DNA of 64,000 bases from Armatimonadetes bacterium UBA1398 (GTDB lineage Bacteria > Armatimonadota > Zipacnadia > UBA1398): assembly GCA_002305165.1 (NCBI GenBank), contig DBQI01000065.1, positions 16,794 through 80,793 on the forward strand, given 5' to 3'. The notes under the pieces are model-generated. The model saw nothing but the letters and a program-made list of their open reading frames with translations. It had not been told where the DNA came from and ran no database searches. The position numbers and the translations under genes were made by a program. Each line of letters begins with the position of its first letter. The stretch's first letter is position 1. Below are positions 4,835 through 29,253 of this stretch, piece by piece.

Positions 4835-6043
4835 GTGCGTCGTTCTCTTCCCAACCTGGTTCGTGTGTTCGGGATTGTCTGGTGCGGTCTCACTCTTCTC
4901 TGCCATTCCGCATCGGCTGCGCCCGAGCCCGAGAAGCAGGATGTCACCCTCAACGAGGTCATCGCCAGCCCCTCCCACTACCGGGACGCCGATATGTCGC
5001 TTGAGGGACTGGTGGGCGATGCACGGCTTGCCCGGGGTCCCGAAGGTCGCACGTGTTCCTTCGCCCTGGTCAGTCCTAACAGCAATATGGGCCTCGCCAT
5101 ACTAGGCGCTGACGCGCCGGAAACAGGCCTGTACGTGCGTGTGGAGGGTCCTCTGCGGCTCGATCCGCGGCTGAACACCCCGTACATCGAGTCACCCCGG
5201 GTAACTGTCCTCCACGAGCTGCCCCTGTGGCTGCGTCCCGCTGACCATCAGAGCCTTGCCGCCCTCGGCGCCATCCTGTGCGCCATGGCCGCATGCCTTC
5301 TCCTCGTCAGCATCCGCCGACCCTCCAGCGTGGCGCCGTCTCCAGAGCGCTTCAGTGCTCTGATCTCGACCGCCGTCTTGCCTCCGCGCGCTGAGACCCC
5401 GGCCCCGGCGACCGTCGCCGAGTACGTCGCGCCCGCCCCGGACACCTCGATCGGTGACGAGGGTTGCGAGCCGGGAGCATCTGACGACGATACGCCACTA
5501 ACGGGGGAGACCGTGTCCTTGGATCCGGAAGCTCTGGTGGCCGGGTCCGAGGGGCCGGCTCCATCCGGTCCTGCGGAGGGCGTGCCGGCCCGGGAAACCT
5601 CGACCGGTGACGAGAGTCCTGAGCCGACAGCATCGAGCGATGCGGCGCCCACGGCGGAGGCCGAGTCCGAAGAGCCCCCGACTGTGCCCGATGGGGACGC
5701 GTCCGTACCCATCGTCGGTATGGTACTGGAGGTCGTCGCGGGACCCGACCGGGGCAGGGTTTTCGAGGCGCGTGGCCCTAGAGTCACGATCGGCCGTTCG
5801 GAGGATCGCGACGTGCCCTTGACCGACGAGTTGGTCGCGCGCCATCAGGCGACCCTTACGCGCTCCAATGGGGTGGTGCTGCTCAGCTCTGAGGTTCCGG
5901 GCGCCGTAGTGTGTCTCAACTCCCGCCCGGTGCGCCAAGCGGAGATCGCGGCCCATGATGTCATTCGCATGGGATGCTCCGAGCTGCGCCTGATCGCCTC
6001 GCCATCAGCAGCGGAGCTAGGCCCTTCGGTACCCGCGCAATGA
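4835..6043 (+). CDS. membrane-anchored FHA domain protein (signal peptide, periplasmic domain, TM helix, acidic/Pro-rich linker, C-terminal FHA)
   Basis: C-terminal FHA signature RVTIGRSEDRDVPLTDELVARHQATL...NSRPV; internal hydrophobic helix LAALGAILCAMAACLLLVSI; stop overlaps next start (ATGA). Confidence 0.65.
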   Translation: MRRSLPNLVRVFGIVWCGLTLLCHSASAAPEPEKQDVTLNEVIASPSHYRDADMSLEGLVGDARLARGPEGRTCSFALVSPNSNMGLAILGADAPETGLYVRVEGPLRLDPRLNTPYIESPRVTVLHELPLWLRPADHQSLAALGAILCAMAACLLLVSIRRPSSVAPSPERFSALISTAVLPPRAETPAPATVAEYVAPAPDTSIGDEGCEPGASDDDTPLTGETVSLDPEALVAGSEGPAPSGPAEGVPARETSTGDESPEPTASSDAAPTAEAESEEPPTVPDGDASVPIVGMVLEVVAGPDRGRVFEARGPRVTIGRSEDRDVPLTDELVARHQATLTRSNGVVLLSSEVPGAVVCLNSRPVRQAEIAAHDVIRMGCSELRLIASPSAAELGPSVPAQ

Positions 6044-7275
6044 GCGATGACGTCCAGACCACTCCCGCCGAGGTCCCTGCCCTACCTGCCACACGCCCGG
6101 TGCGCGTTGGGTGCGCGGCGGCGCAGCCGGATGGGCTTGACCCCTGCCAAGCCGCCGTCGTCTGCGAGTGTCCCGCCGGAGGCGAGGTCCACTACGCCGC
6201 TGCGGCCTGCGTCATCGATGGCTCCCTCTCCCAGTCCAGAGGTGACATCGCGGCCTCCCTAGTTGCAGACCAGCTTGAGTCGGCACTCCAGTCTGGGCGA
6301 GCCCCCACCATTGGGGCGGGATTGGTGATGGCTCTGCACGATGCCGCAGAGGCCTTGAAGCGCCGCGCTAAGCTGCCTCACGACCCCGCGGACCTGAAGT
6401 GCAGTGCTGGTGTCGCGGTGCTGGATGACGGCAACTGGACCTTCGTTGAGGTCGGCGGCGCCCATGTGTTCCTGGAGCGAGGCCGGGCCGTCGGTCCGGT
6501 CTTCCGACAGGGACAGGCTGCCGATCCTCCTCTAGGCGATGAGGACTCCGCGCCCAGAGTCACGACGGCACGCGCTCTCCCGGGTGATCAGGCGCTGCTG
6601 CTGGGTGGCTACACCGCGGGCAGTCTCGACCTCGCCCGAGCTGCCCAGTCTCTCCGAGCTGCGCCCGATCTTGGGGAGGGCTGCAAGGCACTCGCCCGGG
6701 AGGCCCTCTCGACCCACCACACACCCCAGGCTCTGGCGTCCATCGTCCTGGATCGTCGGCCGCGTCGAGCACGATCTGTCGTGTTCCCCCTGCTATTCTC
6801 ACTCGCTTTCGTGGTGGCGGCCCTCGGGTTCGCCTTCCTTGCCTGGACGGGAGGACCGACGAGACCGATCATCCCGCCCGAGGCGCGAAGTGCGAACCTG
6901 CTGCCCATCGCTGAGGAACCCCAAGGCGCCGGCGTCGATGTCGGCGGGGCTCCCGGCCTGGTGGATATCGATCTCCCCGACGTCGAGGCCGTGCCGCGCG
7001 ATTCAGGCCGCGTCAAGGTGATCGGCGAGCCCGGACTCTGTTTCGAGGTCCTCGACCTGGCAACGGGCGAGTCCGTGTTGGAGGGCGAGATCCGCGAGGG
7101 ACAGGACTCCTACATCAGCCAGGGCATTCCCGCTCCAGGTCAATACTCTGTGACGGTATGGGAGTCGGCAGAGAAGAAGGAGGCCCGCATGGAGGGGCTC
7201 GAGTTCCATCTGGAACGGGACGCAATCAGGATTGTCGATTCCCGCAGAGGACACGAGCACGAGCCAGCGCGATAG
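6040..7275 (+). CDS. PP2C-like (possibly degenerate) membrane protein with extracytoplasmic C-terminal domain
   Basis: Start set at ATG 6040 overlapping the FHA stop. N-terminal region shows PP2C-like blocks (HYAAAACVIDGSLSQSRGD, AGVAVLDDGNWTFVEVGGAHVF, GDQALLLGGYTAG); TM helix VVFPLLFSLAFVVAALGFAFLAW. Confidence 0.5.
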   Translation: MSDDVQTTPAEVPALPATRPVRVGCAAAQPDGLDPCQAAVVCECPAGGEVHYAAAACVIDGSLSQSRGDIAASLVADQLESALQSGRAPTIGAGLVMALHDAAEALKRRAKLPHDPADLKCSAGVAVLDDGNWTFVEVGGAHVFLERGRAVGPVFRQGQAADPPLGDEDSAPRVTTARALPGDQALLLGGYTAGSLDLARAAQSLRAAPDLGEGCKALAREALSTHHTPQALASIVLDRRPRRARSVVFPLLFSLAFVVAALGFAFLAWTGGPTRPIIPPEARSANLLPIAEEPQGAGVDVGGAPGLVDIDLPDVEAVPRDSGRVKVIGEPGLCFEVLDLATGESVLEGEIREGQDSYISQGIPAPGQYSVTVWESAEKKEARMEGLEFHLERDAIRIVDSRRGHEHEPAR

Positions 7276-7355
7276 CAGGTCATCGCCTCGCCATAGGGAA
7301 CTGCGGGACGGCTCGGGCGCACCTTCACGCACCATGGAGAGGACTCCCGGAACCA

Positions 7356-7613
7356 ATGGAAGACACCCCTGAACTGAGGAGCCAGCTACGCGAGCTTGTC
7401 GTAGAGCGCCTCGCACTTGATGTTGACCCAACCGAACTCGACGACTCCGCCAACCTCATGGATGTCTACGGAGCCGACTCGGTAGGCCTCTTCTGGATCG
7501 TTGTGGGGCTGGATGAGGATCTCGGCGTGCAGGTCGGCGAGGACGAGTTCGATCTGGAGCGGTTCAGCAGCATCGAGAACCTAGCGAAGTTCCTCTCCGA
7601 GCGCGAGGCATAG
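7356..7613 (+). CDS. acyl carrier protein-like (phosphopantetheine-binding)
   Basis: 85-aa acidic protein from internal ATG of track ORF 7158..7613, GGAGAGG about 15 nt upstream; GADSVGL resembles the ACP DSL phosphopantetheine attachment motif. Confidence 0.6.
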   Translation: MEDTPELRSQLRELVVERLALDVDPTELDDSANLMDVYGADSVGLFWIVVGLDEDLGVQVGEDEFDLERFSSIENLAKFLSEREA

Positions 7614-7639: not shown

Positions 7640-8452
7640 ATGGAGAGCTACCAGTTCATCCCTTCGGGCAGCGAGGAGATCCTCACGGCCTACCATGCCG
7701 CCGTCGACGGATCGCCGCCCGTCCGCTGCGCCGTTCTGGTGGCTCCTCTCCACGAGGAGAAGAAGGCCGCCCACCGTCCCCTGGTGGACCTGGCCCGCGC
7801 GCTCGCGAACAGAGGTTGCGCCTGCCTGCGGTTCGATCCACGGGGCACGGGCGACAGCCCCGGCGTGGCGGATGACCTCTGCTTCAGCACGCTCCGACAG
7901 GATCTGACGGTCGCCATCGACCAAGCCCGCACCCTCTCCGGTCTGGAGAAGGTCAGCCTTCTGGGGGTTAGGCTGGGCGCCGATCTCGTGGCACTCGAAG
8001 GGCTCGCGGGCACTGAGGTGGATCACACCCTACTGTGCGTGCCTCTCATCAGCGGCGAGCGCTACCTGCGGGAGGTACGGATACGCGGGAGGATTCGAGG
8101 CGCGATGACCACCGCGGAGGGCGGCGAGGAGGCCTCCGGCCGGTCGGCAGGGTTGGACTACGGTGGGCACTATGTCTCCCCCGAGCTGATCGCCGACCTG
8201 GAGGCCCACGATCTGATGGTTGACGAGTCCCCCCTAGCGGCGCGGGTCACCTGCATAGACATCCGAGGCAGGGATAGCATGACGGCCCCCCTGTCGGCCC
8301 TCGTTGCGAGGCTGCAGAGCCGAGGCGCCAGCGTCGATGCGCGGGTGGTGCTGGACGAGCCTTTCTGGAACGCACTGGGGCCCATCGTCCCTCGCGCGTT
8401 CATTCAGGCTGTGGTCGAGATCCTCACCGGTCGAGAGGACGAGGCCCGATGA
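7640..8452 (+). CDS. alpha/beta-fold hydrolase
   Basis: 270 aa; alpha/beta hydrolase-like layout; stop overlaps next start (ATGA at 8449..8452). Confidence 0.55.
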   Translation: MESYQFIPSGSEEILTAYHAAVDGSPPVRCAVLVAPLHEEKKAAHRPLVDLARALANRGCACLRFDPRGTGDSPGVADDLCFSTLRQDLTVAIDQARTLSGLEKVSLLGVRLGADLVALEGLAGTEVDHTLLCVPLISGERYLREVRIRGRIRGAMTTAEGGEEASGRSAGLDYGGHYVSPELIADLEAHDLMVDESPLAARVTCIDIRGRDSMTAPLSALVARLQSRGASVDARVVLDEPFWNALGPIVPRAFIQAVVEILTGREDEAR

Positions 8453-9297
8453 GCCTGTCGGAGCGCTTCATCGAGTTCGTCGGCGAGAGCGGCGGGGTGC
8501 TCCGCGGCATTCTGCACGAGCCTGTCGAGGCGAGGGACCTGCCACCTGTCATCATGTTCTCAGGCTGGGGCGGCACACGGTATGGGCCCAACCGAATACT
8601 GCTCGAGGCGGCGCGGGATCTGGCCACAGATGGTCGCGCGGTTCTCCGGGTCGACTTCCGAGGTCGGGGAGACTCCGACGGATTTGTGGACGAGCATGAC
8701 CTTCGGTCCCACATCATCGACGGCAGGACCATGGTCGCCTGGTCGCGACGGAACCTGGCGGATCGCCCGCCGGTGCTTCTGGGCATCTGCTCGGGGGGCG
8801 AGGTCGCGGTCGGCTGCATCTTCGACGGCTTGGATGTTGACTCAGTCTGCCTCTGGTCGGCGCCCGTCTTCGCGGCCCAGGCCACGACCGAGAGGGTCGC
8901 CACGAAGCGAGCCTCCTACCTCAGGGAGTACGGGCGGAAGCTCTTCCGAGGTGAGACCTGGCGGAAGCTCATCGCTGGCGAGGTGCGGTTCGATATCATC
9001 CGGCGGGTGCTCGGCAAGGCAGGTGTGCACGTGAAGTCCGAGGACGAGCCGGCGGAGTTGTCGGCGCAGTCGGACTTCCCCGCGCGATGCGAGGCCGCGC
9101 TGCTCATCTACGGCACAGCGGACCCGATCGCCGCAGAGGCGATCCAGGCGTACCAGGCTCTCTTCAGCCGCGCAGGATGTTCCACTGAACTCCGCCATAT
9201 CGAGGGTGCCAACCACGGGTTCTATGCCCTCGACTGGAAGCGTGAGGTGATCGAGAGCACCAGGGGCTGGCTGGCCGGTCGGGGTACCGCCTCATGA
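8449..9297 (+). CDS. alpha/beta-fold hydrolase
   Basis: 282 aa; nucleophile-elbow-like GICSGG and C-terminal GANHGF (catalytic His candidate); coupled to flanking genes by ATGA overlaps. Confidence 0.55.
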
Positions 9298-10397
9298 GGC
9301 GCATCCTCTTTGTCAGCCATGTGGGGGAGTTGGGGGGCGCGGAGCACTCCCTCGTTACGTTGGTCTCGTGCCTCGATCAGGGCCGCTACGACGCCCACGT
9401 TGCCCTGTCCACCATCGACTCCCCGTTGGGACGCGCGCTGTTAGAGCGGGGCGCTGAGACCCACGCCATCCCATCGCTGCGTCCGCTCCGCCGGCGCGAC
9501 CCGTTCATGCCGATCACCCTCATCCGAGGCCAGCGCGCGTTGTCCGCCCTGGCACGGAGGCTGAGGCCGGACGTCATTCACGCGAACAGCGACGTGTCGA
9601 TGGCGTACGCGGCCGGACTCTACACGGAATCAGGCTCGGGGCGAACCCCCTGGCGGATCGTCTGGCACCTTCGCGACATGCGAGGCGCGGGATACTGGGT
9701 CCGCCACCTTCGCGATCACTCTCACGCGCGCATCGCAGTGAGCCGAGCGGTGCTCGATCATCACGGCCTACACGCCTGCGAGCGGTCGCGAGTCATCTAT
9801 AACGGAGTCGACCTGTCACGCTTCCGACCGGGTCTATCGGGGGCGTCCATCCGACGCGAGCTGGCGATTGGCGCGGACCGTGTGCTGTGCCTCTGCGTGG
9901 CTCAGGCGGTCCCATGGAAGAACCTGGACACATTCGCCGGGCTCTCCGGTGAGGGGTACGAACGGCTGCTCATCGCCTATCCTCCCCCGGGAGGCAGGCC
10001 CATGGCCTGTCCCGCTTCTGGACCGGGGCTGCAAGTGGTCGGCTACCGCGACGATATGCCCGAGGTGTACGCGGCCGCGGACGTGCTCGTCCATCCGGCC
10101 ATCGGCGAGGCCTTCGGCCGCACGGTGGTCGAGGCCATGGCGTGCGGAGTGCCGGTGGTCGCCTACCGCCATGGAGGACCCGCGGAGACGATCGTGCATG
10201 GAGTGAGCGGCCTGCTCGTCGACCCGAAGGAACCGGAGGCCTTGGAGTGTGCCGTGGATCGTCTCGTGGCCGACGCTGACCTCCGGGGCCGCCTCGCTGT
10301 CGGTGCGGCCGAGCGGGCCCAGGCGTTTTCCTCCGAGAGTCACGCGGCCCAGGTGGAAGCGTTCTACGAGGATCTCATCGAGGGGGGAGCGGGGTGA
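9294..10397 (+). CDS. GT4 family glycosyltransferase (GT-B fold)
   Basis: C-terminal retaining-GT4 signature [25 protein letters not shown]; GTGA overlap with next gene. Confidence 0.8.
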
Positions 10398-11512
10398 GGG
10401 TCGGCATCGACTGCTCGGTCCTTCACGGACGCTTCTCCGGTGTGGAGAAGGCCGTCCGTGGGCTGATCGGAGGGCTGGCCGAGACCCAGGGCGAGCAGGA
10501 GCTGGTCCTCCTCTGTGGGCGCAAGCCGCCGCTCGATCTCCCGTTGCCATCGGGCATGGTGTGGCACTGCAGCGACTTCGACCCAGCCAACAGACTCCGC
10601 CGCATCGCCTTCCAACAGTGGGAGCTGCCCCGACTGGCCAAGCGCCTGGGCCTCGACGTGCTACACGGACCGGCCTATATAACGCCTGTTCACGCCCGCT
10701 TCCCGACTCTAGTGAGCGTGTACGACCTGATGGTCTTCCTCTATCCCGACCTCTGCGCACGAGCCAACCGTGTGCACTATCGCCTGGTCATGCCGCGCTG
10801 CGTGCCACGTTGCGAGCGGGTCCTCGTGCCTAGCGCCATCGTGGGGTCCTCGGTCGTGGAGACGCTCAGGGTGGATCCGGCTCGTGTCCGAGTGTCGCAC
10901 CTTGGCCTGGACCCCATCTTCGCGAGGTCCCCAGACGCGGAGGAGGTCGCCTCCCTCCGGGACCGACTGAACTTGCCCGAGCGGTTCCTCCTGTTCGTCG
11001 GCAATCTGGAGCCCAAGAAGGGCCTCGATGTCCTCGTCCGCGCGCTGGGTAGGCTCCGCGAGGGCCCGCCCCTCGTTATCGCGGGCAAGCGCGCTTGGGG
11101 CGTGGGCGGACTCGATGAGCTGATCGCCTCTGAGGGCATCCAAGACCGCGTTACGTTCACGGGGTACGTGCCCGATGAGGATCTCCCCGCCCTGTACGCG
11201 GCGGCCCGCTGGTTCGTGTTCCCCTCCATCTACGAAGGCTTCGGCCTGCCGCCCCTGGAGGCTATGGCATCTGGAACACCAGTGATCGCCTCCGATGGTG
11301 GCGCGCTCCCGGAGACCACCGGCGATGCCTGCGTCCGCGTCGAGGCGGGCAGCGTAGAGGAGCTCGCGGAGGCGATATCGGCTTCCTGGGGCGACGATGC
11401 CCTACGCGAGAGCCTGTCACGTGCCGGCGTCGTGCAGGCGAGCCGGTTCTCCTGGAGAAACCACGCTCTGGACGCGCGGCAGCTCTACGCGGAGGTGCGC
11501 CATGGACCCTAG
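10394..11512 (+). CDS. GT4 family glycosyltransferase
   Basis: GTG start overlapping previous stop; signature [22 protein letters not shown]. Confidence 0.8.
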
Positions 11513-12704
11513 CGCGCGGATCGCCTATGTGCTTGGCTCGTTCCCGAGCCCATCGGAGACGTTCATCCTGACAGAGATGTCTCTGCTGCGAGAGCGGGAC
11601 ATTGAGCCACTCGTCGTCGCACTCGAGCGTGGCCCCGATGTGGGCGACGACCGCGTCGCGGCTCTTGAGGCTGCGGCTCGCTACCGTCCCGCGCGATGGG
11701 TCTGCGTCCTGCAGAGCCTGCTCTACGGCATCGGCGGGGATGCCCGCGCCCGACTCCACGGCGCCGCAGCGGCGCGGTTCGCGGAGCAGCTGGCCCCTCT
11801 GACCCCGACGCATGTACACGCTCACTTCATGGGGGCGCCAACCCTCGTAGGCCACGCCATGGCCCGCATGATGGGGCTCAGCTTCACCTTCAGTTGCCAC
11901 GCCTCCGATGTCTTCACGGCCGGCGACCCCACTCCCGAGGAGCATGCGGCCGTCTATGACGCCCACGCAATCATCGCATGCTCCGAGTACCTCCGGAAGC
12001 ACCTCATCGAGCGCAGGGGGTACCCCCGCGAGAAGGTCATCACCATCCACCATGGCATCGATCTGAGTCGAGTGCCGGAGCGCGCGGCTCCGACCGATTC
12101 CACCGAGCCGGTCTTGGTGGCCGTAGGCCGACTGGTTCCCAAGAAGGGCTTCGATGTGCTGCTGCGCGCGGCCGCGCCGATGCTGAAACAGGATCGGATC
12201 GCCCTGCGGATCGCAGGGGAGGGCCCTGAAGGAACGCGGCTTAGAGCCCTTGCCGTCGATCTCGGCGTGTTGGACCGGGTGGAGTTCCTCGGCCGGCTCA
12301 CGTGGGAGGACACCCTGCGGACGATAGCCGAGTCCAGCGCACTCATCGCGCCCTCAGTGACGGCCGAGGACGGCGACATGGACGGGATCCCCAACGTCCT
12401 CCTGGAGGCTGGCGCGTTGGGAGTGCCGGTCATCGCGAGCCGGCTGTCCGGCATCCCCGAGCTCGTCGAGGACGGCAAGACCGGGCTGCTCACAGCCTCC
12501 GGGGATGAAGGGGCGCTTGGCAAGGCGCTCCGCCGCGTCGCGGACAGCGCGGACCTTCGGGCGCAGCTCGGAGGAGCCTCTCGCGAACGGATCCGCCGCG
12601 AGTGGAGCGCAGCCGACTCCGTAGGCCAGATCGCTGGCTTGTTCCGCGAGGCAGCGGCTCACACGACTGTGCCGGTCGAAGGCATCGAAGGGGCGCGTGC
12701 GTGA
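11502..12704 (+). CDS. GT4 family glycosyltransferase
   Basis: Start set at ATG 11502 (M36 of track ORF 11397..12704), 11-nt overlap with previous gene; signature GIPNVLLEAGALGVPVIASRLSGIPELV. Confidence 0.75.
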   Translation: MDPSARIAYVLGSFPSPSETFILTEMSLLRERDIEPLVVALERGPDVGDDRVAALEAAARYRPARWVCVLQSLLYGIGGDARARLHGAAAARFAEQLAPLTPTHVHAHFMGAPTLVGHAMARMMGLSFTFSCHASDVFTAGDPTPEEHAAVYDAHAIIACSEYLRKHLIERRGYPREKVITIHHGIDLSRVPERAAPTDSTEPVLVAVGRLVPKKGFDVLLRAAAPMLKQDRIALRIAGEGPEGTRLRALAVDLGVLDRVEFLGRLTWEDTLRTIAESSALIAPSVTAEDGDMDGIPNVLLEAGALGVPVIASRLSGIPELVEDGKTGLLTASGDEGALGKALRRVADSADLRAQLGGASRERIRREWSAADSVGQIAGLFREAAAHTTVPVEGIEGARA

Positions 12705-13642
12705 CCGCATCCCCGAGCGCCGCGAGGATACTCGTTGCCGATGACGACGCGCAGCTTTGCGACGCCCTCGTCCAGCTTCTCGGCGTTGCCGGCCACTCGG
12801 TTCAGACCGCTGGCGACGGGTATGCCTGCATCGAGGCCATCCGGGCTTTCGAGCCCGATGTGCTGATCCTCGATCTCTCCATGCCGAACCTGGATGGTTA
12901 CGGCGTCATCCGCGAGATGGAGGTTCTCGATCTCGCGAGCCAGCCGCCCGATGTCATCGTCCTGACTGGGCACGCCGGCGTCTCGGAGGGGGCACGGGCC
13001 ATTCGCTCGGGGGCCATCGGCTTCCTCACCAAGCCGGCGCGGAGCGTCGAGCTCCTCACCCTCATCGATCGCGCGGTGGCGGCCCGACGGGCCCTCGACC
13101 AGAAGCTCAGCGCCTTCAGCGAGTCTCGCAAGCACTGGGAGTGTTCGGTGGCTTGCCAAAGACGCAACATACGCCACGTTGTGAACCACATCGCGGCGGA
13201 GATCGAGGTCACGGGCCTGATCCCGCCCCGAGGCATACGGCGGATCCTCATGGCGGCCGACGAGGCGATCACCAACGCGGTCGTCCACGGAGGCCTGGAA
13301 GTCGGGTCGCTGATCAAAGAACGGGCCGATTCCCTCGGCTTCGAGCAGGCCTGCGCCATTCGGGAGGCCCAGGCTGGGCACGGTGACCGTCGGGTGACTG
13401 TCGCCCTGGACATCAACCCTGACGAGTTGGTCATCACTATCCAGGACCAGGGCCCCGGGTTCGATGTGTCGGACCTGCCCGATCCGAGCGATCCGGACGC
13501 GCTATTCAGGGCGAGCGGCCGTGGTATCATCATCATGCAGTCCCTGCTTGATGAGGTCCGGTTCGAGGACGCCGGCAGACGAACCATCATGGTTCAGCGA
13601 GCGCGTGGTACCATAGAGGCGTCAGCCAAGCAGGTGATGTGA
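12701..13642 (+). CDS. response regulator receiver (REC) domain fused to RsbW/SpoIIAB-like HATPase_c domain
   Basis: GTG 12701 overlaps previous stop (GTGA). REC motifs ILVADDD, LILDLSMPNLDG, LTKPA; C-terminal GHKL-type ATPase-like region; no HisKA or DNA-binding domain seen. Confidence 0.6.
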   Translation: MTASPSAARILVADDDAQLCDALVQLLGVAGHSVQTAGDGYACIEAIRAFEPDVLILDLSMPNLDGYGVIREMEVLDLASQPPDVIVLTGHAGVSEGARAIRSGAIGFLTKPARSVELLTLIDRAVAARRALDQKLSAFSESRKHWECSVACQRRNIRHVVNHIAAEIEVTGLIPPRGIRRILMAADEAITNAVVHGGLEVGSLIKERADSLGFEQACAIREAQAGHGDRRVTVALDINPDELVITIQDQGPGFDVSDLPDPSDPDALFRASGRGIIIMQSLLDEVRFEDAGRRTIMVQRARGTIEASAKQVM

Positions 13643-13748
13643 GTGCGAACGTCAAACATAGAGTGCGCTGAACGGTCGAGGCTCGGGATTCGTTTCCGAA
13701 TCGGCCGTGTGTTGTTTTGCGCCCGTGCTACGGGAAGGATTGGCCACT

Positions 13749-14534
13749 ATGCGTAGGCTAGCGGGACTTTGCGCTTCCATCATCGGCGTCGGAGCCCTCG
13801 TGGGCGTACTGCTCGCGCAGGGTCCGGCGGACGATGTCGCCCGGGCTCAAACGGGGATGCCCGCGGCCCCAAGTGCTCCGGGAGCGGCGGGGACCGGCGC
13901 GATGATGGGCGGCGGCATGATGGGTGGCGGGATGATGGGCATGGGTGGCGCGGCTGCCACCGATGCGGCGCCCGCCGCGCCTACCGTTACGGTCACCCGG
14001 CAGGTGAAGGACGATCTGGCCGAGGGCGACGACGTGGTTGTCGATGTCGTCAACGGCGCCACCCTGCAGCTTCAGAATGGCGTCGACGGCCAGGTCTTCG
14101 TGCGCCTCGATGGAGTCGTTCTGCCACGCGAGTCCGTTCGGCTGCGCTCGGACTGGACCAAGGTCGAGGGCACGGGGGATCCCTGGGACTGGCGCCGTTT
14201 TGATGGCGCGCTCTACAAGGACGCCACCATCCCCGACATTGAGACCTACCGCAAGGGGGAGGACGAGCTTCGGGCCTTCGTGATGGACACCGTCGTCAAC
14301 CGGACCGTCACGGTGGAGAAGGTCGGCGACTTCCTCCAAGCCAACGGCAAGACGATCCCTGCCGTGAAGATCACCTACACCCGCCCCGAGATCCTCATAG
14401 GGCAGGACACGGGCCCCTTCGACCTCAATGCCGAGGTCATCGCGAAGACCAAAGCCTTGGGCCTCTGGAACTGCATGTGGGACCGCGGGAAGCCGAAGGC
14501 ATTCGACTGCAGCACGCAGAGATGGGCCAACTAG
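13749..14534 (+). CDS. secreted protein with Met/Gly-rich repeat (MMGGGMMGGGMMGMGG)
   Basis: Start at internal ATG giving signal peptide MRRLAGLCASIIGVGALVGVLLAQG; Met/Gly repeat then globular C-terminal domain with two Cys. Confidence 0.5.
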   Translation: MRRLAGLCASIIGVGALVGVLLAQGPADDVARAQTGMPAAPSAPGAAGTGAMMGGGMMGGGMMGMGGAAATDAAPAAPTVTVTRQVKDDLAEGDDVVVDVVNGATLQLQNGVDGQVFVRLDGVVLPRESVRLRSDWTKVEGTGDPWDWRRFDGALYKDATIPDIETYRKGEDELRAFVMDTVVNRTVTVEKVGDFLQANGKTIPAVKITYTRPEILIGQDTGPFDLNAEVIAKTKALGLWNCMWDRGKPKAFDCSTQRWAN

Positions 14535-14560: not shown

Positions 14561-14591
14561 AGAGGGGGCAGCTCCTAGAGCTGCCCCCTCT
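14561..14591. terminator. GC-rich hairpin between convergent genes (candidate bidirectional terminator)
   Basis: Perfect inverted repeat AGAGGGGGCAGCTC / GAGCTGCCCCCTCT with a 3-nt loop; no U-tract. Confidence 0.4.
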
Positions 14592-17166
14592 AACGTACCG
14601 GTCTCTGATCTGTGCGCTCAACCCTCACGGCCCCCGCCGCCTGGGCCTCGCGGTAGACATCCCTCGTTATGCGGTAGGGCAACGGGTCTGGAACCCCAGT
14701 GATCGAAAGGGGCCTGGGCGCGACCATAGCCGCCAGATGGGGCAGGTCCACGACAGACAGGATGTGGGGAGCCCGAGGCCCTGAGCGCCCCGCGGAGTAG
14801 GTCGGCCCGAGTTCGCGCACGTCCACGGCCTGGATGTTCGTGTCCATCGCCGCGGCGATCAGCGCCAGAACCCCGGCATCAGACCACGCGAGCAGCGAGA
14901 CTCGGGCCGGGTCGACCCCTGGCTGGGCGCGCAACCAGGCTACAGCGGCCAACATGTCGCGAGCGCCCTCCACGGCGGCGGGGCAGCCGAGGATCACCCC
15001 GTTCATGTTCAGCGTCTGCTTCGGGCCGGCCCCGGCGCACTCACCCATCCAGCGCGGATCCAACAGGAGCACGCGGCCTCCGCCCGCTACGACGCGGTGC
15101 AGCTCGCGGCGCGAACTCGACCAAGCCAAGCGCTTGCCCTCAGGATGCACGACAACCACCGCCGGTCCGGGGTCAGTGGATCCCTCGGGCTCGATCAGCA
15201 TCGCCGGAATGCTGAAGTCCGGATCGACGGCCAGGCTGAGCATCCTGGTTCGGAGCCCCACGACCTGGCCCTCGGTCACCTGGGTGGACCCGGGGACGGA
15301 CGGCGGGGCGAGCATGCCGCGTGACCACGCCAGCAGCTTGCCTCGCACCTGCTCGTTACACGCCTGGATCGTTCCGAGTGAGCGCAGTCGGGTGTACTGC
15401 TCGCCTCGACGCAGGTCGAACTCGCGCGCTATCGCCGCCAGCCCATCGGACTCAGGAGGGCTGTCCAGCGCGCTGAGCTCCTCGACCGTGGGGACTGGCA
15501 CGTCAAGCTCAGCCACTGGGCCGGCGTCGGGAAGCTCCCTGAGCCACCGATCCATGAACTGGTAGGTCTCCTCTCGCATGGCCTGGTTGTAGTCGTGGCC
15601 GGACTCGTGATGGGTGGCCCAGAGCTTCTCCTGAGCCCCGTAGAGCCCATAGACAGCCTGGACCTGGGGGAGATCCTCTGCGGGGAAGGTCGCCGTCCAG
15701 TCGCCCGTCACGGTGATGATGAGCGCCGGATCCGGCGCCATCCGGGCCGCCATCTCCGGAGCGTCGGTGTCCGCAGCCACCCCGGGCACATGATTGCAGT
15801 CGCAGTGGACCTCGTAGGGGTCCAGGATGGTGCGGAACTTGGACACCATGCAGACGGGAACTGCCGCCCTGAGCCGATCATCGACCGCCATGAGGTAGAA
15901 GGTCTGCTGGGCCCCTCCGGATACGCCGGCGCTGCCTATCCTATCGGGGTCAACGAAGGGGAGGGATTGCAGCAGGTCGATGGCGCGGATGTTGTTCCAC
16001 GTCATGACGGTCTGGGGCATGATCCCCCGCTCCCAGTCGTAGAGATGCACGCTGTCGGGAGCCAGGCAGACGTACCCCCGGAGCGCCAGGTTCACGAGGC
16101 GGGCCTGCACAATGGGGTGGCGGTTCCCGTTCTCCCAATGGCCGTGGGGGTTCAGCACGGCGCAAGCTCTGCCCTCGATATGGTCGGGCCGATAGAGGTA
16201 CCCTGCCGCCCAGTAGCCCGGCCAGGACTCCCAGTAGAGGCGCTGGACGGTGTAGCCCTCCCGCTCCATGCGGCGCCCCCAGTGGACATTCACCGGCCCA
16301 CGGCTGGGCAGCGGCCATAGGCCCAGGTCATCCAGCACTCTCTCGCGGATCTCATCGCGTCGCGCTTTCCACGCAGTCAGGTCTGCGGGCCTCCAGGGTC
16401 TAGGCTGGGCGATCCGCGTTAGGTAGGATGCGTACTGGTCTCGCATGGACTGGGGTGACAGAACCTCCATTGCCTGTGCCTCCCTAACTGCGGCCAACAC
16501 CTCGGGCGGTGTGCCGCGCCAGATGCTCAGGTTGTCGAGATCGCCCACATAGGGCTGGTGGGTGTCCAGGTTGTTGCCGGCACGGAGTTGTACTTCGGAG
16601 GGGCCCCCGGGGCCGGGCTGAGCGAGGGCTCGCAGTTCGCCGTCGATCTCCACCCACGCGAGCGCCAACTCGGCGTCGTGGCCCGCGCGGACACGGTGCC
16701 ATTCACCGTCGTTCACCGCGCCTGCGCTTCCCAGCTTCACCCGGCGCCACGACCACAGCTCGAAGGACAGGTGCCCGGGATCGCGGCCGATCACGACGCT
16801 CCAACTGACCTCACCCCCGGGTGCCGTCTTCGTCATCAGCAGTGTTGCGAAGCTCCGCTGCACGGTGCGCATGAGGAACTCGATCGTGAAGCTACTCTCG
16901 CTGTCGAATGCCCAGGCCGAGGATCCCGGCCACGTGATGGCTTCCGAGCCTTCGGAGAAGCTCAGCCAGCGGTTCTGCCCTTCACCGGCCCGGAGACCAT
17001 CGGCCACTGGGACTTCCACGGCCAGGGCCCCGTCACCAACGGCCGGGCCAGATTGCTCGTCGAAGCCCCAGGAAGCCACCAGATCCATCTGAGCCTGCCC
17101 CGACGACGCCAGCAGCGCCCCTACCATGGCAAGGCCGGCCCAGTGCGAACGATACACTCCCATCAC
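14590..17166 (-). CDS. secreted LamG/concanavalin-like lectin domain plus alpha/beta-hydrolase (esterase/peptidase-like) protein
   Basis: 858 aa; signal peptide; N-terminal LamG-like segment (FTIEFLMRT...GEWHRV); C-terminal hydrolase with nucleophile elbow GVSGGAQQT. Confidence 0.55.
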   Translation of the reverse strand: MMGVYRSHWAGLAMVGALLASSGQAQMDLVASWGFDEQSGPAVGDGALAVEVPVADGLRAGEGQNRWLSFSEGSEAITWPGSSAWAFDSESSFTIEFLMRTVQRSFATLLMTKTAPGGEVSWSVVIGRDPGHLSFELWSWRRVKLGSAGAVNDGEWHRVRAGHDAELALAWVEIDGELRALAQPGPGGPSEVQLRAGNNLDTHQPYVGDLDNLSIWRGTPPEVLAAVREAQAMEVLSPQSMRDQYASYLTRIAQPRPWRPADLTAWKARRDEIRERVLDDLGLWPLPSRGPVNVHWGRRMEREGYTVQRLYWESWPGYWAAGYLYRPDHIEGRACAVLNPHGHWENGNRHPIVQARLVNLALRGYVCLAPDSVHLYDWERGIMPQTVMTWNNIRAIDLLQSLPFVDPDRIGSAGVSGGAQQTFYLMAVDDRLRAAVPVCMVSKFRTILDPYEVHCDCNHVPGVAADTDAPEMAARMAPDPALIITVTGDWTATFPAEDLPQVQAVYGLYGAQEKLWATHHESGHDYNQAMREETYQFMDRWLRELPDAGPVAELDVPVPTVEELSALDSPPESDGLAAIAREFDLRRGEQYTRLRSLGTIQACNEQVRGKLLAWSRGMLAPPSVPGSTQVTEGQVVGLRTRMLSLAVDPDFSIPAMLIEPEGSTDPGPAVVVVHPEGKRLAWSSSRRELHRVVAGGGRVLLLDPRWMGECAGAGPKQTLNMNGVILGCPAAVEGARDMLAAVAWLRAQPGVDPARVSLLAWSDAGVLALIAAAMDTNIQAVDVRELGPTYSAGRSGPRAPHILSVVDLPHLAAMVAPRPLSITGVPDPLPYRITRDVYREAQAAGAVRVERTDQRPVR

Positions 17167-17177
17167 CCTCCTCGGGG

Positions 17178-19298
17178 CTATGGGAGGCCGAGGTCACGCA
17201 GAGGCTTCAGCGCCGCCTCGGCCCGCTCGTCTTGCCCCAGCGAGCGGTAACACTCCGCCAAACGCAGTCGTTCTTCCTTCTCCGCGGGAGGAACACGGAA
17301 GGCGAACGCCTGCTCGAAAGCCTCGATGGCGCCTCGGGCGTCGCCCGCCTCGTAGAGGGCGTTCCCGAGGGCTTTGTTCAGAGGTCCCAGCACCGTGATG
17401 TCCCAGACGCGCCGCCGGTGTCGTTCGAGGAGCCGCGCTGCCGACTCGGGCTGGCCCAGCGCGCGGCGGATTCGCGACTCCTGGATCACAAGCCTGTCGT
17501 GATGCGGCGCGATCTCCCGACCGAGAGTGATGAGCCCGAAGGCCCCCCACGGATCGCCATAGAGGAGCCGCTCGTCGCTCAGTTCCAGCAGTGGCGCCAT
17601 CGCCATCTCGCGGACGCCACGGTCCGTTGGGTGCTCCGCCATGCACCACCGCGCCCAAGCGAGACACTCCCGGACCAGCGCCTCATATGTGGCGGGGTCC
17701 TCCTCGGCCAGATTCACGGGATGGGCGGTGACTTGGCTGACCCAGCCTCGTGTCTCAAGGTGCGCCCCGGCCGCCTCGTACCAACGCGCCCCCGCGGAGA
17801 ACACCCCGCCAGCCCGCACTGCCAGGCTAGCCAGGTGGCGCTCGCGCTCCAGGAAGACCTGCTGGAAGGACCCCTCGACCTCTTCCTGGCTGGCGCCCAT
17901 CCACTCCTGCACGTAGCGGTACGAGTTGTCATCCAGTTCGGGGGCGAGCCAGACCCGTTGCTCGGTGCTCTGCTCCACATTGCGGCAGTAGTAGAGCGGG
18001 AAGATCCGATGGTCGCCGACGACATGCTCATCACCGCAGATGAGATCCGTTGCGGGATTGCCTAACGCGGCGATAGCCCGGTCGGCGTAGTAAGCGGCCA
18101 TCCACTCGGTGCTCCGATCCACCTCCCTGTAAGTGCGCGGCGTCTCGGCGAGCAGCCAGGCCAGAAGGACTGACAGGATGATCGCCACCGCCTTCCTCCC
18201 CCGCTCCTGGGCATCACCGAGGAGGAAGGCGATCCCGTGCAGGCCGGCCCCCGCCAGCCCAACTATCCCGAGGTAGGCGGGGATGAAGAACACCTCCTGG
18301 TCCATCGCCGTGTAGTTCCAGAAGAAGCCGAGGGAGGCCACCGCTAGCCACGCGAAAGGCGCCAGGCGCGTCCCCGCCGGACGCCACCCCACGACGTACC
18401 CGCCGAGGGCAAGCGCCCAGACGGGAAGCGACAGCTCCGCTGCTAGGCGGTGCCAGTCTCCCCTGAGCATCGTCCCCCAGAGAGGCGGCTGGGCGCCCCA
18501 CATGAACCGGCGGTAGGGGCCTGCTGAGATGGTGAACTTGAAGTCAGCCCAGGTCTTCGGCTTCGCCCAGCAGTACGCGGCTCCCTGATCCAGGTGGGGC
18601 CACGCCCCAGCCCGCAGCGGGAGATGCAGCCATACCAACTGAGACAGCAGGTACCCGCCCACGAAGGCTCCCAGCACGCTCCATCTCAGCCATAGGCGTC
18701 GAGGCTGTCCGATGAACAACGGCAGCAGCCCCAGTTGAAGGAGCGCGTTGAAGGGCCGGTGGGTGACGGCGAGCCCCAGGAGCAGTCCCAGCCCCAGCGC
18801 CCACCACCAGCGCACCGCTTGGCCCGCTTCCAGCCCTCTCCGCATCCGCAGCGCCCCCGCCAGCCCTGCCGTCAGGAGGGCTATGTCGAGGGTGTACACC
18901 TCGGTCAGGGTGGCCTGGTCCCAGACTACAGGGGTCAGGCAGAAGGCCCACGTGAGGAGCAGGGCGGTGACGTCGTGGCGGACCAGCTCGCGTAGTGAGA
19001 TGAACAGGAATAGGCCCGCGAAGCCCAGCCAGATGGCTGAGAGCAGGTTGGCGCTCGCCGCCAGGGAGGCGAGGGGCACGACCTGGCTCCAGCCCCAGGT
19101 CAGGAGCACCCACAATGGGTAGCCGGGCGCATGGGCGATGCCTCGCTGCCCCACGGCGGACAGCAGTTCGCCCGCGTCCCCGAAGGTGATCGATGGCGCC
19201 ACGGTCCAGACCACTACTGCCAGCACACCGAGGGACGAGAGAGCGCCACATACCGGGCAGCTTACGGCGGCGAGGTTAGTGGTCAGGGGACGCTGCAT
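17178..19298 (-). CDS. DUF2723-like multi-pass membrane protein (putative GT-C/PMT-like glycosyltransferase) with C-terminal TPR-like repeats
   Basis: 706 aa; N-terminal about 400 aa of hydrophobic helices with FGDAGELL motif; soluble C-terminal helical repeat region. Confidence 0.55.
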   Translation of the reverse strand: MQRPLTTNLAAVSCPVCGALSSLGVLAVVVWTVAPSITFGDAGELLSAVGQRGIAHAPGYPLWVLLTWGWSQVVPLASLAASANLLSAIWLGFAGLFLFISLRELVRHDVTALLLTWAFCLTPVVWDQATLTEVYTLDIALLTAGLAGALRMRRGLEAGQAVRWWWALGLGLLLGLAVTHRPFNALLQLGLLPLFIGQPRRLWLRWSVLGAFVGGYLLSQLVWLHLPLRAGAWPHLDQGAAYCWAKPKTWADFKFTISAGPYRRFMWGAQPPLWGTMLRGDWHRLAAELSLPVWALALGGYVVGWRPAGTRLAPFAWLAVASLGFFWNYTAMDQEVFFIPAYLGIVGLAGAGLHGIAFLLGDAQERGRKAVAIILSVLLAWLLAETPRTYREVDRSTEWMAAYYADRAIAALGNPATDLICGDEHVVGDHRIFPLYYCRNVEQSTEQRVWLAPELDDNSYRYVQEWMGASQEEVEGSFQQVFLERERHLASLAVRAGGVFSAGARWYEAAGAHLETRGWVSQVTAHPVNLAEEDPATYEALVRECLAWARWCMAEHPTDRGVREMAMAPLLELSDERLLYGDPWGAFGLITLGREIAPHHDRLVIQESRIRRALGQPESAARLLERHRRRVWDITVLGPLNKALGNALYEAGDARGAIEAFEQAFAFRVPPAEKEERLRLAECYRSLGQDERAEAALKPLRDLGLP

Positions 19299-27252: not shown

Positions 27253-27381
27253 CTGGTCGCGGCTCGAGGGGAGGATTCCCCACGGACCGATACAAGATGC
27301 CGATAGCGGGTGGACCCGTCCTCTGGCGCGGGTGCCGTCCTGGTTCGCTTCGTCTGGCGAAGACTTGGGGCGTCTGATCCA

Positions 27382-29253
27382 ATGAGTGAAGAGCGCGAAG
27401 TGCTCAAACGGGTAGCGGATGGGCGCAGCGACCCGGGCATCCTGGCCCGAGAGGCTGGCCGTGCGGACGAGGACTCCCTGTGCATCCGGGAGTTCGACGG
27501 AGACCGAGGCGCCCTCTATGCGGTCGCCGACGGGCTGAGCGGCAGGAACGCCGGCAGCGTCGCTAGCGCCCAGGCGGTTGGCCTGCTCGAGGAGGCTTTG
27601 GAGGCGTACGCCCGCCACGGCGAGGCGCTCCTCCAGCAGCTCGGTCCGGCCCTCCCCGACCTCAGGGCCTACATCGACTACGTCGCCGTGCGGATCGACG
27701 CCCAGTTGCGCGCCAACGCCGAGGCGAATCCCAGCCTGGCGGGGATGGCGACGAGCCTTACGGCGGCCTACGTGGATGGCCGGGACCTCCTCATCGCCCA
27801 TGTCGGCGACTCCCGCGCCTACCGCGCCCGCGCCACGGAGTCTGGGCTGCAGCAGCTCACCATCGACGATGCCCCCGTGGATGACGAGGAGTTCGATCCC
27901 CCTCCCTCCAAGGCCCTGGGCGACGCCGACGAGCAGCCACTGCGCATCGATCAGTACCGCGCGGAGGATGGAGACATCCTCCTGCTTTGCACTGACGGGC
28001 TGTGGCGCGAGGTCGACTGTGCGCTCATGGAACGCATCCTGAAGGGGTCCCCGCGCCCCTCGATGGCCGTCGAGAGGCTCATCCGCGCGGGGAACCAGGC
28101 TGGCGGACGTGGCAACATGGCCGCCGTCGTCGTTCACATCGGCGAGGTTGACCTGACCGACGACGAGGCCCTGGATTCGGCCTTCCCCGTCGGCGGCGCC
28201 GCCCCCAAGCAGGCTCCCGTGGAGCCCCCCGCAGAGACGCAACCAGAGCCCGAGCCCGAACCGCCGGTGGAGGAGCCTGCCGCCGAGGCCCCCGAGAACA
28301 CGCCCCCCCCGGAGGAGCCGGCCATTGAGGAGCCGGCCCCCGAGGCTACCGAGGAGGCCCCGAGGGAGGAGCCGGGACCGGTCATACCGGGTCCGCCAGC
28401 AGGTGGCTATGCGGCCGTCCCCGAGGTCGTGGGCCGGGCAACCTACCCGCGCCCCGCGGAGATACCCGACGACGCCCTGCGTCCCCGGCGCGAGACGGCG
28501 GCGGGCGAGGCTAGGTCCAGCGACTCGGCCCTGTTCCTCCTGGGGCTTGTGTCGGGCATCGCCTTCATGCTCGTCATCGGCGGCATTTTCTGGGGCCTTA
28601 AGGCGTGGGCCGGGAAGCCCACCGAAGCGCCGCGAGCCACTGCCACGAGCACCGATCACGTCGACTATGAGGAGATTGTGACCCATCCCGTCAGCTTCTG
28701 GGCCAAGCCTCTGGGGCCGGGGGGGCGGCCGTGCATGATCCTCACCAAGAGTCTCCACGAGGAGACGGGCGAGGAGTCGTGGGAGGAACTGCCTCGCCTT
28801 CAGGGCAATGAGAGCGGCCCATCGGGCTCTGTCAGCCTCTTCCGCCAGGGCGACGCGCTTCACATGTTCCTGGATGTGCAGTTCATCGCGTCCGAGGCCG
28901 GCCTGCCACGCGACTGCCTGCTCTCCCTCAAGGTCATGCCCGACGAGGGCAACCGGACCCAGACCGTCATCACCGCGGGCCCTGACGCCGGCGAGCAGCG
29001 GGACGGGCACATCGAGGTCATCAGCATCCGCCCCGGGAGCGTGAGCCTGGTACCACAGGATCCCGACGAGCGGCTGATCGCGGGCGGCAAGGCCGAGGCG
29101 ACGATGGGCGGCCAAGTCAACGCGTCGGGCTATTACGTGCAGCACTTCGACAAGGTGCCCTTGGGCACGTACCTCGCCAAGAAGGGCAGCAGCGAGCGGA
29201 TCGTCGAGATCACGGCCGCCAAGCGACGGGTGACAGTCACCTTCACCGAGTGA
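27382..29253 (+). CDS. membrane-anchored PP2C-family Ser/Thr protein phosphatase with extracytoplasmic C-terminal domain
   Basis: Start at ATG 27382 (internal to track ORF 27310..29253). PP2C motifs LYAVADGLSG, GMATSLTAAYV, AHVGDSRAY, LLLCTDGLW; Pro/Glu-rich linker; TM helix LFLLGLVSGIAFMLVIGGIFWGL. Confidence 0.75.
   Translation: MSEEREVLKRVADGRSDPGILAREAGRADEDSLCIREFDGDRGALYAVADGLSGRNAGSVASAQAVGLLEEALEAYARHGEALLQQLGPALPDLRAYIDYVAVRIDAQLRANAEANPSLAGMATSLTAAYVDGRDLLIAHVGDSRAYRARATESGLQQLTIDDAPVDDEEFDPPPSKALGDADEQPLRIDQYRAEDGDILLLCTDGLWREVDCALMERILKGSPRPSMAVERLIRAGNQAGGRGNMAAVVVHIGEVDLTDDEALDSAFPVGGAAPKQAPVEPPAETQPEPEPEPPVEEPAAEAPENTPPPEEPAIEEPAPEATEEAPREEPGPVIPGPPAGGYAAVPEVVGRATYPRPAEIPDDALRPRRETAAGEARSSDSALFLLGLVSGIAFMLVIGGIFWGLKAWAGKPTEAPRATATSTDHVDYEEIVTHPVSFWAKPLGPGGRPCMILTKSLHEETGEESWEELPRLQGNESGPSGSVSLFRQGDALHMFLDVQFIASEAGLPRDCLLSLKVMPDEGNRTQTVITAGPDAGEQRDGHIEVISIRPGSVSLVPQDPDERLIAGGKAEATMGGQVNASGYYVQHFDKVPLGTYLAKKGSSERIVEITAAKRRVTVTFTE

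Follow-up and report, generated by a model that had tools for sequence, protein, structure and literature searches.

A receiver-Bergerat regulator behind three glycosyltransferase genes

In a 64,000-nt segment of contig DBQI01000065.1 from Armatimonadetes bacterium UBA1398 (referred to here as the window, i.e., the whole stretch of DNA that was analyzed), the gene at 12701-13642 encodes a response regulator in which a receiver (REC) domain is joined to a Bergerat-fold ATPase domain of the RsbW type. The protein belongs, as a new member, to the REC-Bergerat response regulators of the LvrC/TciR class, whose architecture is already known and which are barely characterized. What is new is confined to its setting: in an uncultured lineage resembling Armatimonadota, the gene consistently closes a glycosyltransferase operon. 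We give roughly even odds (probability ~0.5) to a mechanism in which the regulator exerts a receiver-gated, ATP-dependent action on a partner that is probably of STAS type and encoded elsewhere, and thereby probably tunes the glycoconjugate pathway of its own operon.

REC-Bergerat regulators are widespread, LvrC being without a known sigma factor and TciR without a known target. Within the clade of the window, the context of the regulator is unusually constrained, as the gene occupies a fixed, translationally coupled place behind three glycosyltransferase genes. This position, together with the fused and cis-encoded STAS domains of relatives, provides concrete, testable candidates for the target of the output domain. 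The architecture is not new and nothing reported here is categorically novel; the value of the locus lies in its well-constrained genomic context.

Gene and domain architecture of the regulator

A preliminary description of this DNA, made from the letters alone, had assigned to 12701-13642 a canonical receiver at the N-terminus and an RsbW-like GHKL-type ATPase domain at the C-terminus, with neither a HisKA domain nor a DNA-binding output. Its coordinates proved exact, the reading frame is real as judged by start, stop and coding bias, and each of the domain assignments was borne out by the Pfam search and the features listed here.

12701-13642, plus strand: REC-HATPase_c_2 response regulator gene (LvrC/TciR-type), 313 aa (open reading frame, Pfam, LvrC homology, AlphaFold2 model)
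12728-13066, plus strand: receiver domain, residues 10-122 (Pfam Response_reg, E = 1.5e-22)
12872-12874, plus strand: codon of the phospho-acceptor Asp58 (conserved column, aligned with LvrC D53)
13043-13117, plus strand: long helix linking the REC and Bergerat domains, residues 115-139 (AlphaFold2 secondary structure)
13181-13594, plus strand: HATPase_c_2/Bergerat-fold (GHKL) domain, residues 161-298 (Pfam, E = 8.4e-19)
13262-13291, plus strand: N box EAITNAVVHG (E188/N192/H196/G197)
13445-13462, plus strand: G1 box DQGPGF (D249/G251/G253/F254)
13517-13525, plus strand: G2 box GRG (G273/R274/G275)
13672-13708, plus strand: hairpin and U-rich tract (GUGUUGUUUUG), a possible intrinsic terminator 3' of the regulator gene (centroid of the RNA fold)

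Translation is predicted to begin at a GTG (12701) that overlaps the TGA stop of the upstream glycosyltransferase gene (GTGA), with a Shine-Dalgarno-like AAGGGG 7-8 nt 5' of the start, and ends at a TGA (13640-13642). The GC contents of the three codon positions (0.70/0.46/0.81) resemble those of neighboring genes in this 67% GC window and fit a real gene; a long antisense open reading frame (12898-13590) has GC1 below GC2, the pattern of a high-GC shadow frame.

The receiver contains the acid pocket (D14/D15), the acceptor D58, T89 and K111, with F108 at the aromatic switch position; D58 and F108 align with D53 and F100 of LvrC (PMC13269768). In the C-terminal domain all three nucleotide-binding boxes are intact, and the Pfam scores favor HATPase_c_2 (68.3 bits) over HATPase_c (25.8 bits, below the cutoff). 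Pfam detected no HisKA and no DNA-binding domain, nor is a PP2C domain fused to the regulator: receiver, linker helix and HATPase_c_2 domain account for all 313 residues. A PADLOC scan for defense systems returned a match at the level of the REC domain only.

A family alignment of 29 sequences (24-67% identity) indicated strong constraint on both halves of the protein. D14, D15, D58, T89 and K111 of the receiver are invariant or nearly so, as are E188, N192, H196, G197, D249, G251, G253, F254, G273, R274 and G275 of the Bergerat domain, with E188, N192, G251, G253, G273 and G275 fully and D249 nearly invariant. Immediately 3' of the N box lies a family-specific helical insert of ~35 residues (~198-230; helices predicted at 203-228 by AlphaFold2), exactly where the alignment with SpoIIAB breaks. 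The AlphaFold2 model built on the same 29-sequence alignment (pLDDT 90.1, pTM 0.78) comprises the receiver, the helix at 115-139 and an alpha/beta Bergerat domain.

The best match in the PDB, by sequence as well as by fold, was 9QIH (phmmer, residues 8-296 versus 4-289, E = 4.4e-21; profile search, E = 1.6e-46; Foldseek, E = 1.8e-22), an entry titled 'response regulator LvrC from Leptospira', albeit labeled 'SenB' in its sequence file. When the C-terminal domain alone was compared with the PDB, 9QIH again ranked first, followed by RsbW (6m36) and SpoIIAB (1til, 1th8, 1l0o). With a C-terminal fold of the RsbW type rather than a non-kinase fold, and with the acceptor Asp in place, the domain observation stands.

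An exhaustive homolog search over 1.84 billion cluster representatives (clusters at 50% identity) retrieved 109 clusters at E <= 1e-30, the majority of them two-domain proteins, indicating the architecture to be widespread, not abundant. Among the matches listed, about two thirds are 290-330 aa long and match over their full length, and only two clusters come from the regulator's own clade. The nearest homolog in a GTDB species representative belongs to an uncultured Armatimonadia metagenome-assembled genome (CAZCER01, 50% identity); a partial match of 66% identity is likewise labeled Armatimonadia.

STAS domains accompany relatives of the regulator

To search the window for partner proteins, all predicted genes were compared with Pfam, and six-frame open reading frames of at least 60 aa were scanned using jackhmmer and STAS hidden Markov models seeded from SpoIIAA, RsbV and one fused STAS. 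Neither approach found a STAS domain in the 64 kb, in agreement with the earlier statement that no STAS or anti-sigma antagonist gene lies in the window. Sigma-70-family domains, HisKA kinases, HPt domains and Hanks-type kinases were also missing from the predicted genes by Pfam, and no STAS was present in the orthologous loci L001, L003, L006, L088 and L089. Two candidate hiding places for a STAS domain were rejected. A hidden STAS domain within one of the GT4 glycosyltransferases, as in Anabaena All4160, is incompatible with proteins that are of standard length (367, 372 and 400 aa) and fully covered by GT4 domains (Pfam), and the gene that follows the regulator (13749-14534) encodes a secreted product with a signal peptide.

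Relatives of the regulator present a different picture. Across ~1.3 Mb of related loci we found 18 STAS open reading frames, every one of them immediately upstream of a HATPase_c_2 gene; two, both from Pirellulaceae (L009 and L014), adjoin full-length REC-HATPase_c_2 genes and were confirmed by Pfam. Three family members contain STAS on the same polypeptide, either C-terminally (P0044, P0243) or N-terminally (P0198). All of these cis-encoded and fused STAS domains have Ser or Thr in the column of SpoIIAA Ser58. This association with STAS domains that keep a potential phospho-acceptor points to serine-kinase, partner-switch chemistry, and is the strongest indication that the family's Bergerat domain acts as a serine kinase on STAS or as a partner-switch module.

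Other relatives vary the input side or the surroundings of the module. A second REC domain occurs in P0014, P0128 and P0133, and P0127 is embedded in a complete hybrid histidine kinase. PilZ domains replace REC in P0063, P0065, P0066, P0072, P0086 and P0097 (35-47% identity in the Bergerat domain), so that in these proteins the Bergerat module may be under cyclic di-GMP control. A gene for a sugar-nucleotide epimerase/dehydratase is found no more than two genes away from the regulator in 8 of 21 distant loci; at L011, which was inspected directly, it follows the regulator immediately and is itself followed by a HAD sugar-phosphatase gene. This adjacency ties the family to carbohydrate metabolism in a second, independent way. 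Finally, on an unrelated metagenomic contig (L007, 1953-3859, minus strand), a second REC-HATPase_c_2 gene adjoins a gene with two canonical FHA domains, and nearby genes encode a REC-HATPase_c_2-REC protein and a histidine kinase of the CHASE-PAS type.

Translational coupling of the regulator gene to a GT4 trio

The regulator follows a cluster of densely packed genes on the same strand, listed here with the gene that comes after it.

4835-6043, plus strand: FHA-type membrane protein, first gene of the cluster (Pfam, NCBIfam)
6040-7275, plus strand: membrane protein with a PPM/PP2C-fold N-terminal domain (Pfam, hhalign, AlphaFold2/Foldseek)
7353-7613, plus strand: acyl carrier protein (Pfam PP-binding, E = 7e-8; NCBIfam acyl carrier protein models)
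7640-9297, plus strand: two alpha/beta hydrolases, 7640-8452 and 8449-9297 (Pfam)
9294-10397, plus strand: GT4 glycosyltransferase 1 (Pfam, NCBIfam, synteny with L001, L003, L006, L088 and L089)
10394-11512, plus strand: GT4 glycosyltransferase 2 (Pfam, NCBIfam, synteny)
11502-12704, plus strand: GT4 glycosyltransferase 3, with ATG at 11502 and GGAGG 6 nt upstream (sequence, Pfam)
13749-14534, plus strand: secreted protein (signal peptide) with low-complexity sequence rich in Met and Gly and an uncharacterized C-terminal domain (translation)

Overlaps of 4 nt join the FHA-type and PP2C-fold genes, hydrolase 2 and hydrolase 1, hydrolase 1 and the first GT4 gene, the first and second GT4 genes, and the third GT4 gene and the regulator; the second and third GT4 genes overlap by 11 nt, and short gaps flank the acyl carrier protein gene on both sides. 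The hydrolases are distantly similar to hydrolases 2 and 1 of the exosortase-A-associated type (TIGR03101 and TIGR03100, with scores under the NCBIfam cutoffs), and no exosortase or PEP-CTERM gene was found in the window. The combination of an acyl carrier protein, two hydrolases and three GT4 enzymes suggests an acylated glycan or a glycolipid as the product.

Seven loci, including the window, make up the clade, and the regulators of the others are 43-68% identical to that of the window. Gene content around the regulator was as follows.

L001, regulator identity 67-68%: whole cluster from the FHA-type gene to the regulator
L003, regulator identity 60%: whole cluster from the FHA-type gene to the regulator
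L089, regulator identity 55-56%: whole cluster from the FHA-type gene to the regulator
L088, regulator identity 47-50%: GT4 trio, regulator and downstream gene only; the genes before them are unrelated
L006, regulator identity 43-44%: regulator and GT4 trio, with at least one hydrolase gene; the contig ends upstream

In all seven loci (the window, L001, L002, L003, L006, L088 and L089), the third GT4 gene runs 4 nt into the regulator gene, so that its stop and the regulator's start overlap. As the GT4 trio and this overlap are kept in every locus, the invariant unit consists of three GT4 genes and the REC-Bergerat gene. The FHA-like and PP2C-fold genes share the operon in four loci (the window, L001, L003 and L089) and are absent from the orthologous locus L088.

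Whether the regulator is the last gene of its operon, as the preliminary description had it, is less certain. In favor are the hairpin with its U-rich tract and a gap of 106 nt between the regulator stop and the next gene on the same strand; on the other hand, that gene is syntenic, with orthologs in L001, L002, L003 and L006 and a gene in the same position in L088 and L089. Its product had no match in Pfam or NCBIfam, and its operon membership is uncertain. We therefore regard a terminal position of the regulator as plausible, not certain. The hairpin itself was not called by a consensus terminator scan because of an internal loop, and its assignment as terminator of the regulator gene is tentative. 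Neither promoter nor terminator consensus scans of the window gave anything above shuffled expectation, and regulatory RNAs and tRNAs were not found in it.

Past the regulator, two minus-strand genes share synteny with clade loci: one encodes an 858-aa Laminin_G/esterase-like protein (14590-17166; syntenic in L006), the other a TMEM260-like protein O-mannosyltransferase with TPR repeats (17178-19298; syntenic in L001). Elsewhere in the window, a secreted 1189-aa protein (43913-47482, minus strand) has an unusual architecture, with a DsbA-like segment and C-terminal multihaem motifs (Cytochrome_C554, paired CXXCH).

A degenerate PP2C-fold protein and a degenerate FHA-like protein precede the glycosyltransferases

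The 6040-7275 product is predicted to have one transmembrane segment and a beta-rich extracytoplasmic C-terminal domain, and only four homolog clusters were found for it among 5.8 billion proteins. Its N-terminal domain matched PP2C_2 below the Pfam cutoff (E = 3e-4) and aligned with the genuine PP2C of the window (hhalign, E = 8.5e-4), and its matches to PstP were collinear, weak and non-significant. The AlphaFold2 model of this domain (pLDDT 70-90) retrieved PstP, SpoIIE, PppA, tPphA and RsbX in Foldseek at E ~1e-10, with TM-scores (normalized to the target) reaching 0.78. Of the four Asp residues that bind metal, a single one is kept (D61, equivalent to PstP D38), and the GDSR, SDG and PDN motifs are replaced by G-(G/S)-(A/T)-H, G-G-Y and P-Q-A. 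With three of four catalytic Asp residues lost, the protein is probably a pseudophosphatase. The genuine PP2C membrane phosphatase (27310-29253, plus strand; PP2C_2, E = 4.5e-12) lies 14 kb from the regulator; it has a linker rich in Pro and Glu and, at the C-terminus, an extracytoplasmic domain, and no cognate kinase gene was found in the window.

The 4835-6043 product combines a signal peptide, a transmembrane segment, a long cytoplasmic linker rich in Ser, Thr, Pro and Glu, and a C-terminal FHA/Yop-YscD_cpl domain, which Pfam matches better to Yop-YscD_cpl than to FHA. Compared with canonical FHA domains, this domain keeps the G-R motif; of its phosphothreonine pocket, S-x-x-H has changed and the S-x-N-G-T loop is missing in all three orthologs examined. 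Two candidate roles suffered accordingly from the state of these sites. The idea that the regulator's kinase supplies phosphothreonine to the FHA-like protein of the operon is weakened by the degenerate pocket and by the missing genes in L088. A kinase/FHA/phosphatase triad of the kind formed by PpkA-Fha1-PppA or PknB-FhaA-PstP is attractive but disfavored, both the reader and the eraser sites being degenerate and both genes dispensable in L088. Outside the clade of the window, FHA adjacency is a single case, namely L007.

Proposed mechanism and alternatives

In the mechanism to which we give roughly even odds, Asp58 would be phosphorylated by an unlinked histidine kinase, and a Thr89/Phe108 switch, modeled on LvrC, would change the packing of the receiver against a dimeric Bergerat domain. 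The ATP-bound Bergerat domain might then be freed or blocked, with Ser/Thr phosphorylation and/or sequestration of a protein partner as the consequence; the most likely partner would be a STAS-type protein encoded elsewhere in the genome. Since the regulator is translationally coupled to three GT4 genes in every clade locus, the process under its control would most likely be the glycolipid/glycoconjugate pathway of its own operon, acted on post-translationally. Such a scheme would follow, by analogy, the logic of SypE/SypA in Vibrio and of Alr3423/All4160/HenR in Anabaena, and there is precedent for an RsbW-type kinase that directly controls a polysaccharide enzyme (PMC13555669).

Several points weigh against this mechanism. 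Operon position alone is no proof that the operon's pathway is the target, and neither the 64-kb window nor the 20-kb orthologous loci contain a STAS, sigma-factor or histidine-kinase gene. To our knowledge, no REC-Bergerat protein has been shown to possess kinase activity. The authors of the LvrC study, moreover, favor an anti-sigma role (PMC13269768). The preliminary description had proposed phosphorylation-controlled partner switching or Ser/Thr kinase output rather than transcriptional output. The first half of this proposal is a reasonable hypothesis that gains comparative support from the relatives whose cis-encoded or fused STAS domains keep a phospho-acceptor Ser/Thr; the exclusion of transcriptional output is not established, because the anti-sigma role of LvrC would constitute an indirect transcriptional output.

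Indeed, a receiver-regulated anti-sigma factor is one alternative, in which the Bergerat dimer would sequester an alternative sigma factor encoded elsewhere, phosphorylation of Asp58 would release it, and the output would be transcriptional, possibly including the regulator's own operon. LvrC, the closest solved and biochemically studied homolog, has been read in this way from its similarity to RsbW and SpoIIAB (PMC13269768), which after LvrC are also the next-best PDB relatives of the C-terminal domain in the present case. We nevertheless regard this role as unlikely: no sigma-factor gene resides in the window or in orthologous loci, LvrC itself is without an identified sigma partner, the recurrent cis-encoded or fused partner across the family is STAS and not sigma, and the strictly conserved ATP-binding and catalytic boxes would not be needed by a pure binder. 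The GHKL fold with its N, G1 and G2 boxes, the weak HATPase_c match (25.8 bits) and the fusion of the relative P0127 to a complete hybrid histidine kinase would also be compatible with a detached catalytic and ATP-binding (CA) domain of a split histidine kinase, phosphorylating under receiver control a His on a separate DHp or HPt domain. Here the higher HATPase_c_2 score (68.3 bits, versus a HATPase_c score below cutoff), nearest structures of the RsbW/SpoIIAB type rather than kinase CA domains, and a window devoid of HisKA or HPt genes make the case very improbable indeed.

A further, rather unlikely alternative dispenses with STAS. The Bergerat domain could phosphorylate or bind a GT4 enzyme, the Ser/Thr-rich linker of the FHA-like protein or the PP2C-fold pseudophosphatase, the last by analogy with the docking of the RsbT kinase on the PP2C phosphatase RsbU. 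Translational coupling of the regulator to the GT4 trio in seven of seven clade loci speaks for this view, as do the FHA-like and PP2C-fold genes in the operons of the window, L001, L003 and L089, the double-FHA gene next to the REC-HATPase_c_2 gene of L007, and the lack of a STAS gene in cis. However, the FHA pocket is degenerate (S-x-x-H altered, N-G lost), the PP2C-fold protein is without three of its four catalytic Asp residues, and adjacency to FHA outside the clade comes down to one case; as both genes are absent in L088, their products are not obligatory partners of the regulator. Given degenerate sites and dispensable genes, direct action on the FHA-like or the PP2C-fold protein stays, for us, a minority hypothesis. 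It is likewise doubtful, in our estimate, that the REC-gated domain of this clade has dispensed with STAS altogether and acts directly on the co-encoded, membrane-associated glycoconjugate machinery, namely the GT4 trio, for which catalytically dead PP2C-fold and degenerate FHA proteins would serve as a scaffold in some lineages. If true, this would amount to a partner-switch-like module rebuilt from 'pseudo' signaling domains.

Comparison with known systems

LvrC (LIC11110) of Leptospira interrogans, in which a Rec domain is followed by a Bergerat fold, crystallized as a homodimer with ADP:Mg2+ and is specifically phosphorylated by the kinase LvrB; its authors proposed an anti-sigma role, i.e., an indirect transcriptional output (PMC13269768, Nat Commun 2026;17:5298). 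LvrC and the regulator share the two-domain architecture, similar lengths (304 versus 313 aa), a collinear full-length alignment, the phospho-acceptor Asp, a T/F switch, the boxes for ATP binding and, behind the N box, the insert of ~35 aa. Identity between the two is only ~23-24%, however, and the predicted domain orientation of the regulator differs from that of LvrC (root-mean-square deviation ~14 Å over the whole chain of the model). While LvrC is part of the Lvr virulence phosphorelay with its kinase LvrB, the regulator has no kinase gene in cis and ends a glycosyltransferase operon.

TciR of Vogesella indigofera has the same architecture and conserved kinase residues, in an organism reported to lack an RsbV/STAS homolog (PMC12826045, J Bacteriol 2025). 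By that report's account of Galperin's 2006 census, the architecture was listed there and had not been characterized functionally before TciR. The novelty implied by the preliminary description is thus overstated, with the census, TciR (PMC12826045) and the crystal structure 9QIH already at hand. The tciR gene adjoins the kinase gene tciK and controls the pigment indigoidine, unlike the regulator, which has no kinase gene in cis; the likeness of TciR to the regulator refers to the described architecture.

RsbW and SpoIIAB resemble the regulator in the HATPase_c_2 C-terminus and are, after LvrC, its nearest solved relatives (6m36, 1til, 1th8); moreover, distant relatives of the regulator are paired, as they are, with STAS proteins bearing a phospho-acceptor Ser. 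The Bacillus proteins lack a receiver and are encoded with a STAS antagonist and a sigma factor, whereas in the regulator a REC domain is fused on and a helical insert added, and neither STAS nor sigma factor is encoded in cis.

In SypE (Vibrio fischeri), HsbR (Pseudomonas) and CrsR (Shewanella), a receiver controls an RsbW-like kinase, as the architecture of the regulator would suggest for itself, and SypE is encoded in the glycosyltransferase-rich polysaccharide (syp) locus and acts post-transcriptionally via the STAS protein SypA (summarized in PMC12826045 and PMC10120452). All three proteins include an active PP2C domain within their own chain, and their loci encode a STAS partner; the regulator has neither, and the sole PP2C-fold protein of its operon is a separate, catalytically degenerate membrane protein.

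In Anabaena, the sugar transferase All4160 has a STAS domain that is the substrate of the RsbW-type kinase Alr3423 (PMC13555669, Mol Microbiol 2026). There, unlike in the window, it is the phosphatase HenR that contains the REC domain, and the phosphorylated STAS domain forms one protein with the sugar transferase. Nevertheless, the Alr3423/All4160/HenR system places a polysaccharide-synthesis enzyme under the direct control of an RsbW-type kinase with two-component (REC) input, the arrangement that the proposed mechanism of the regulator would resemble.

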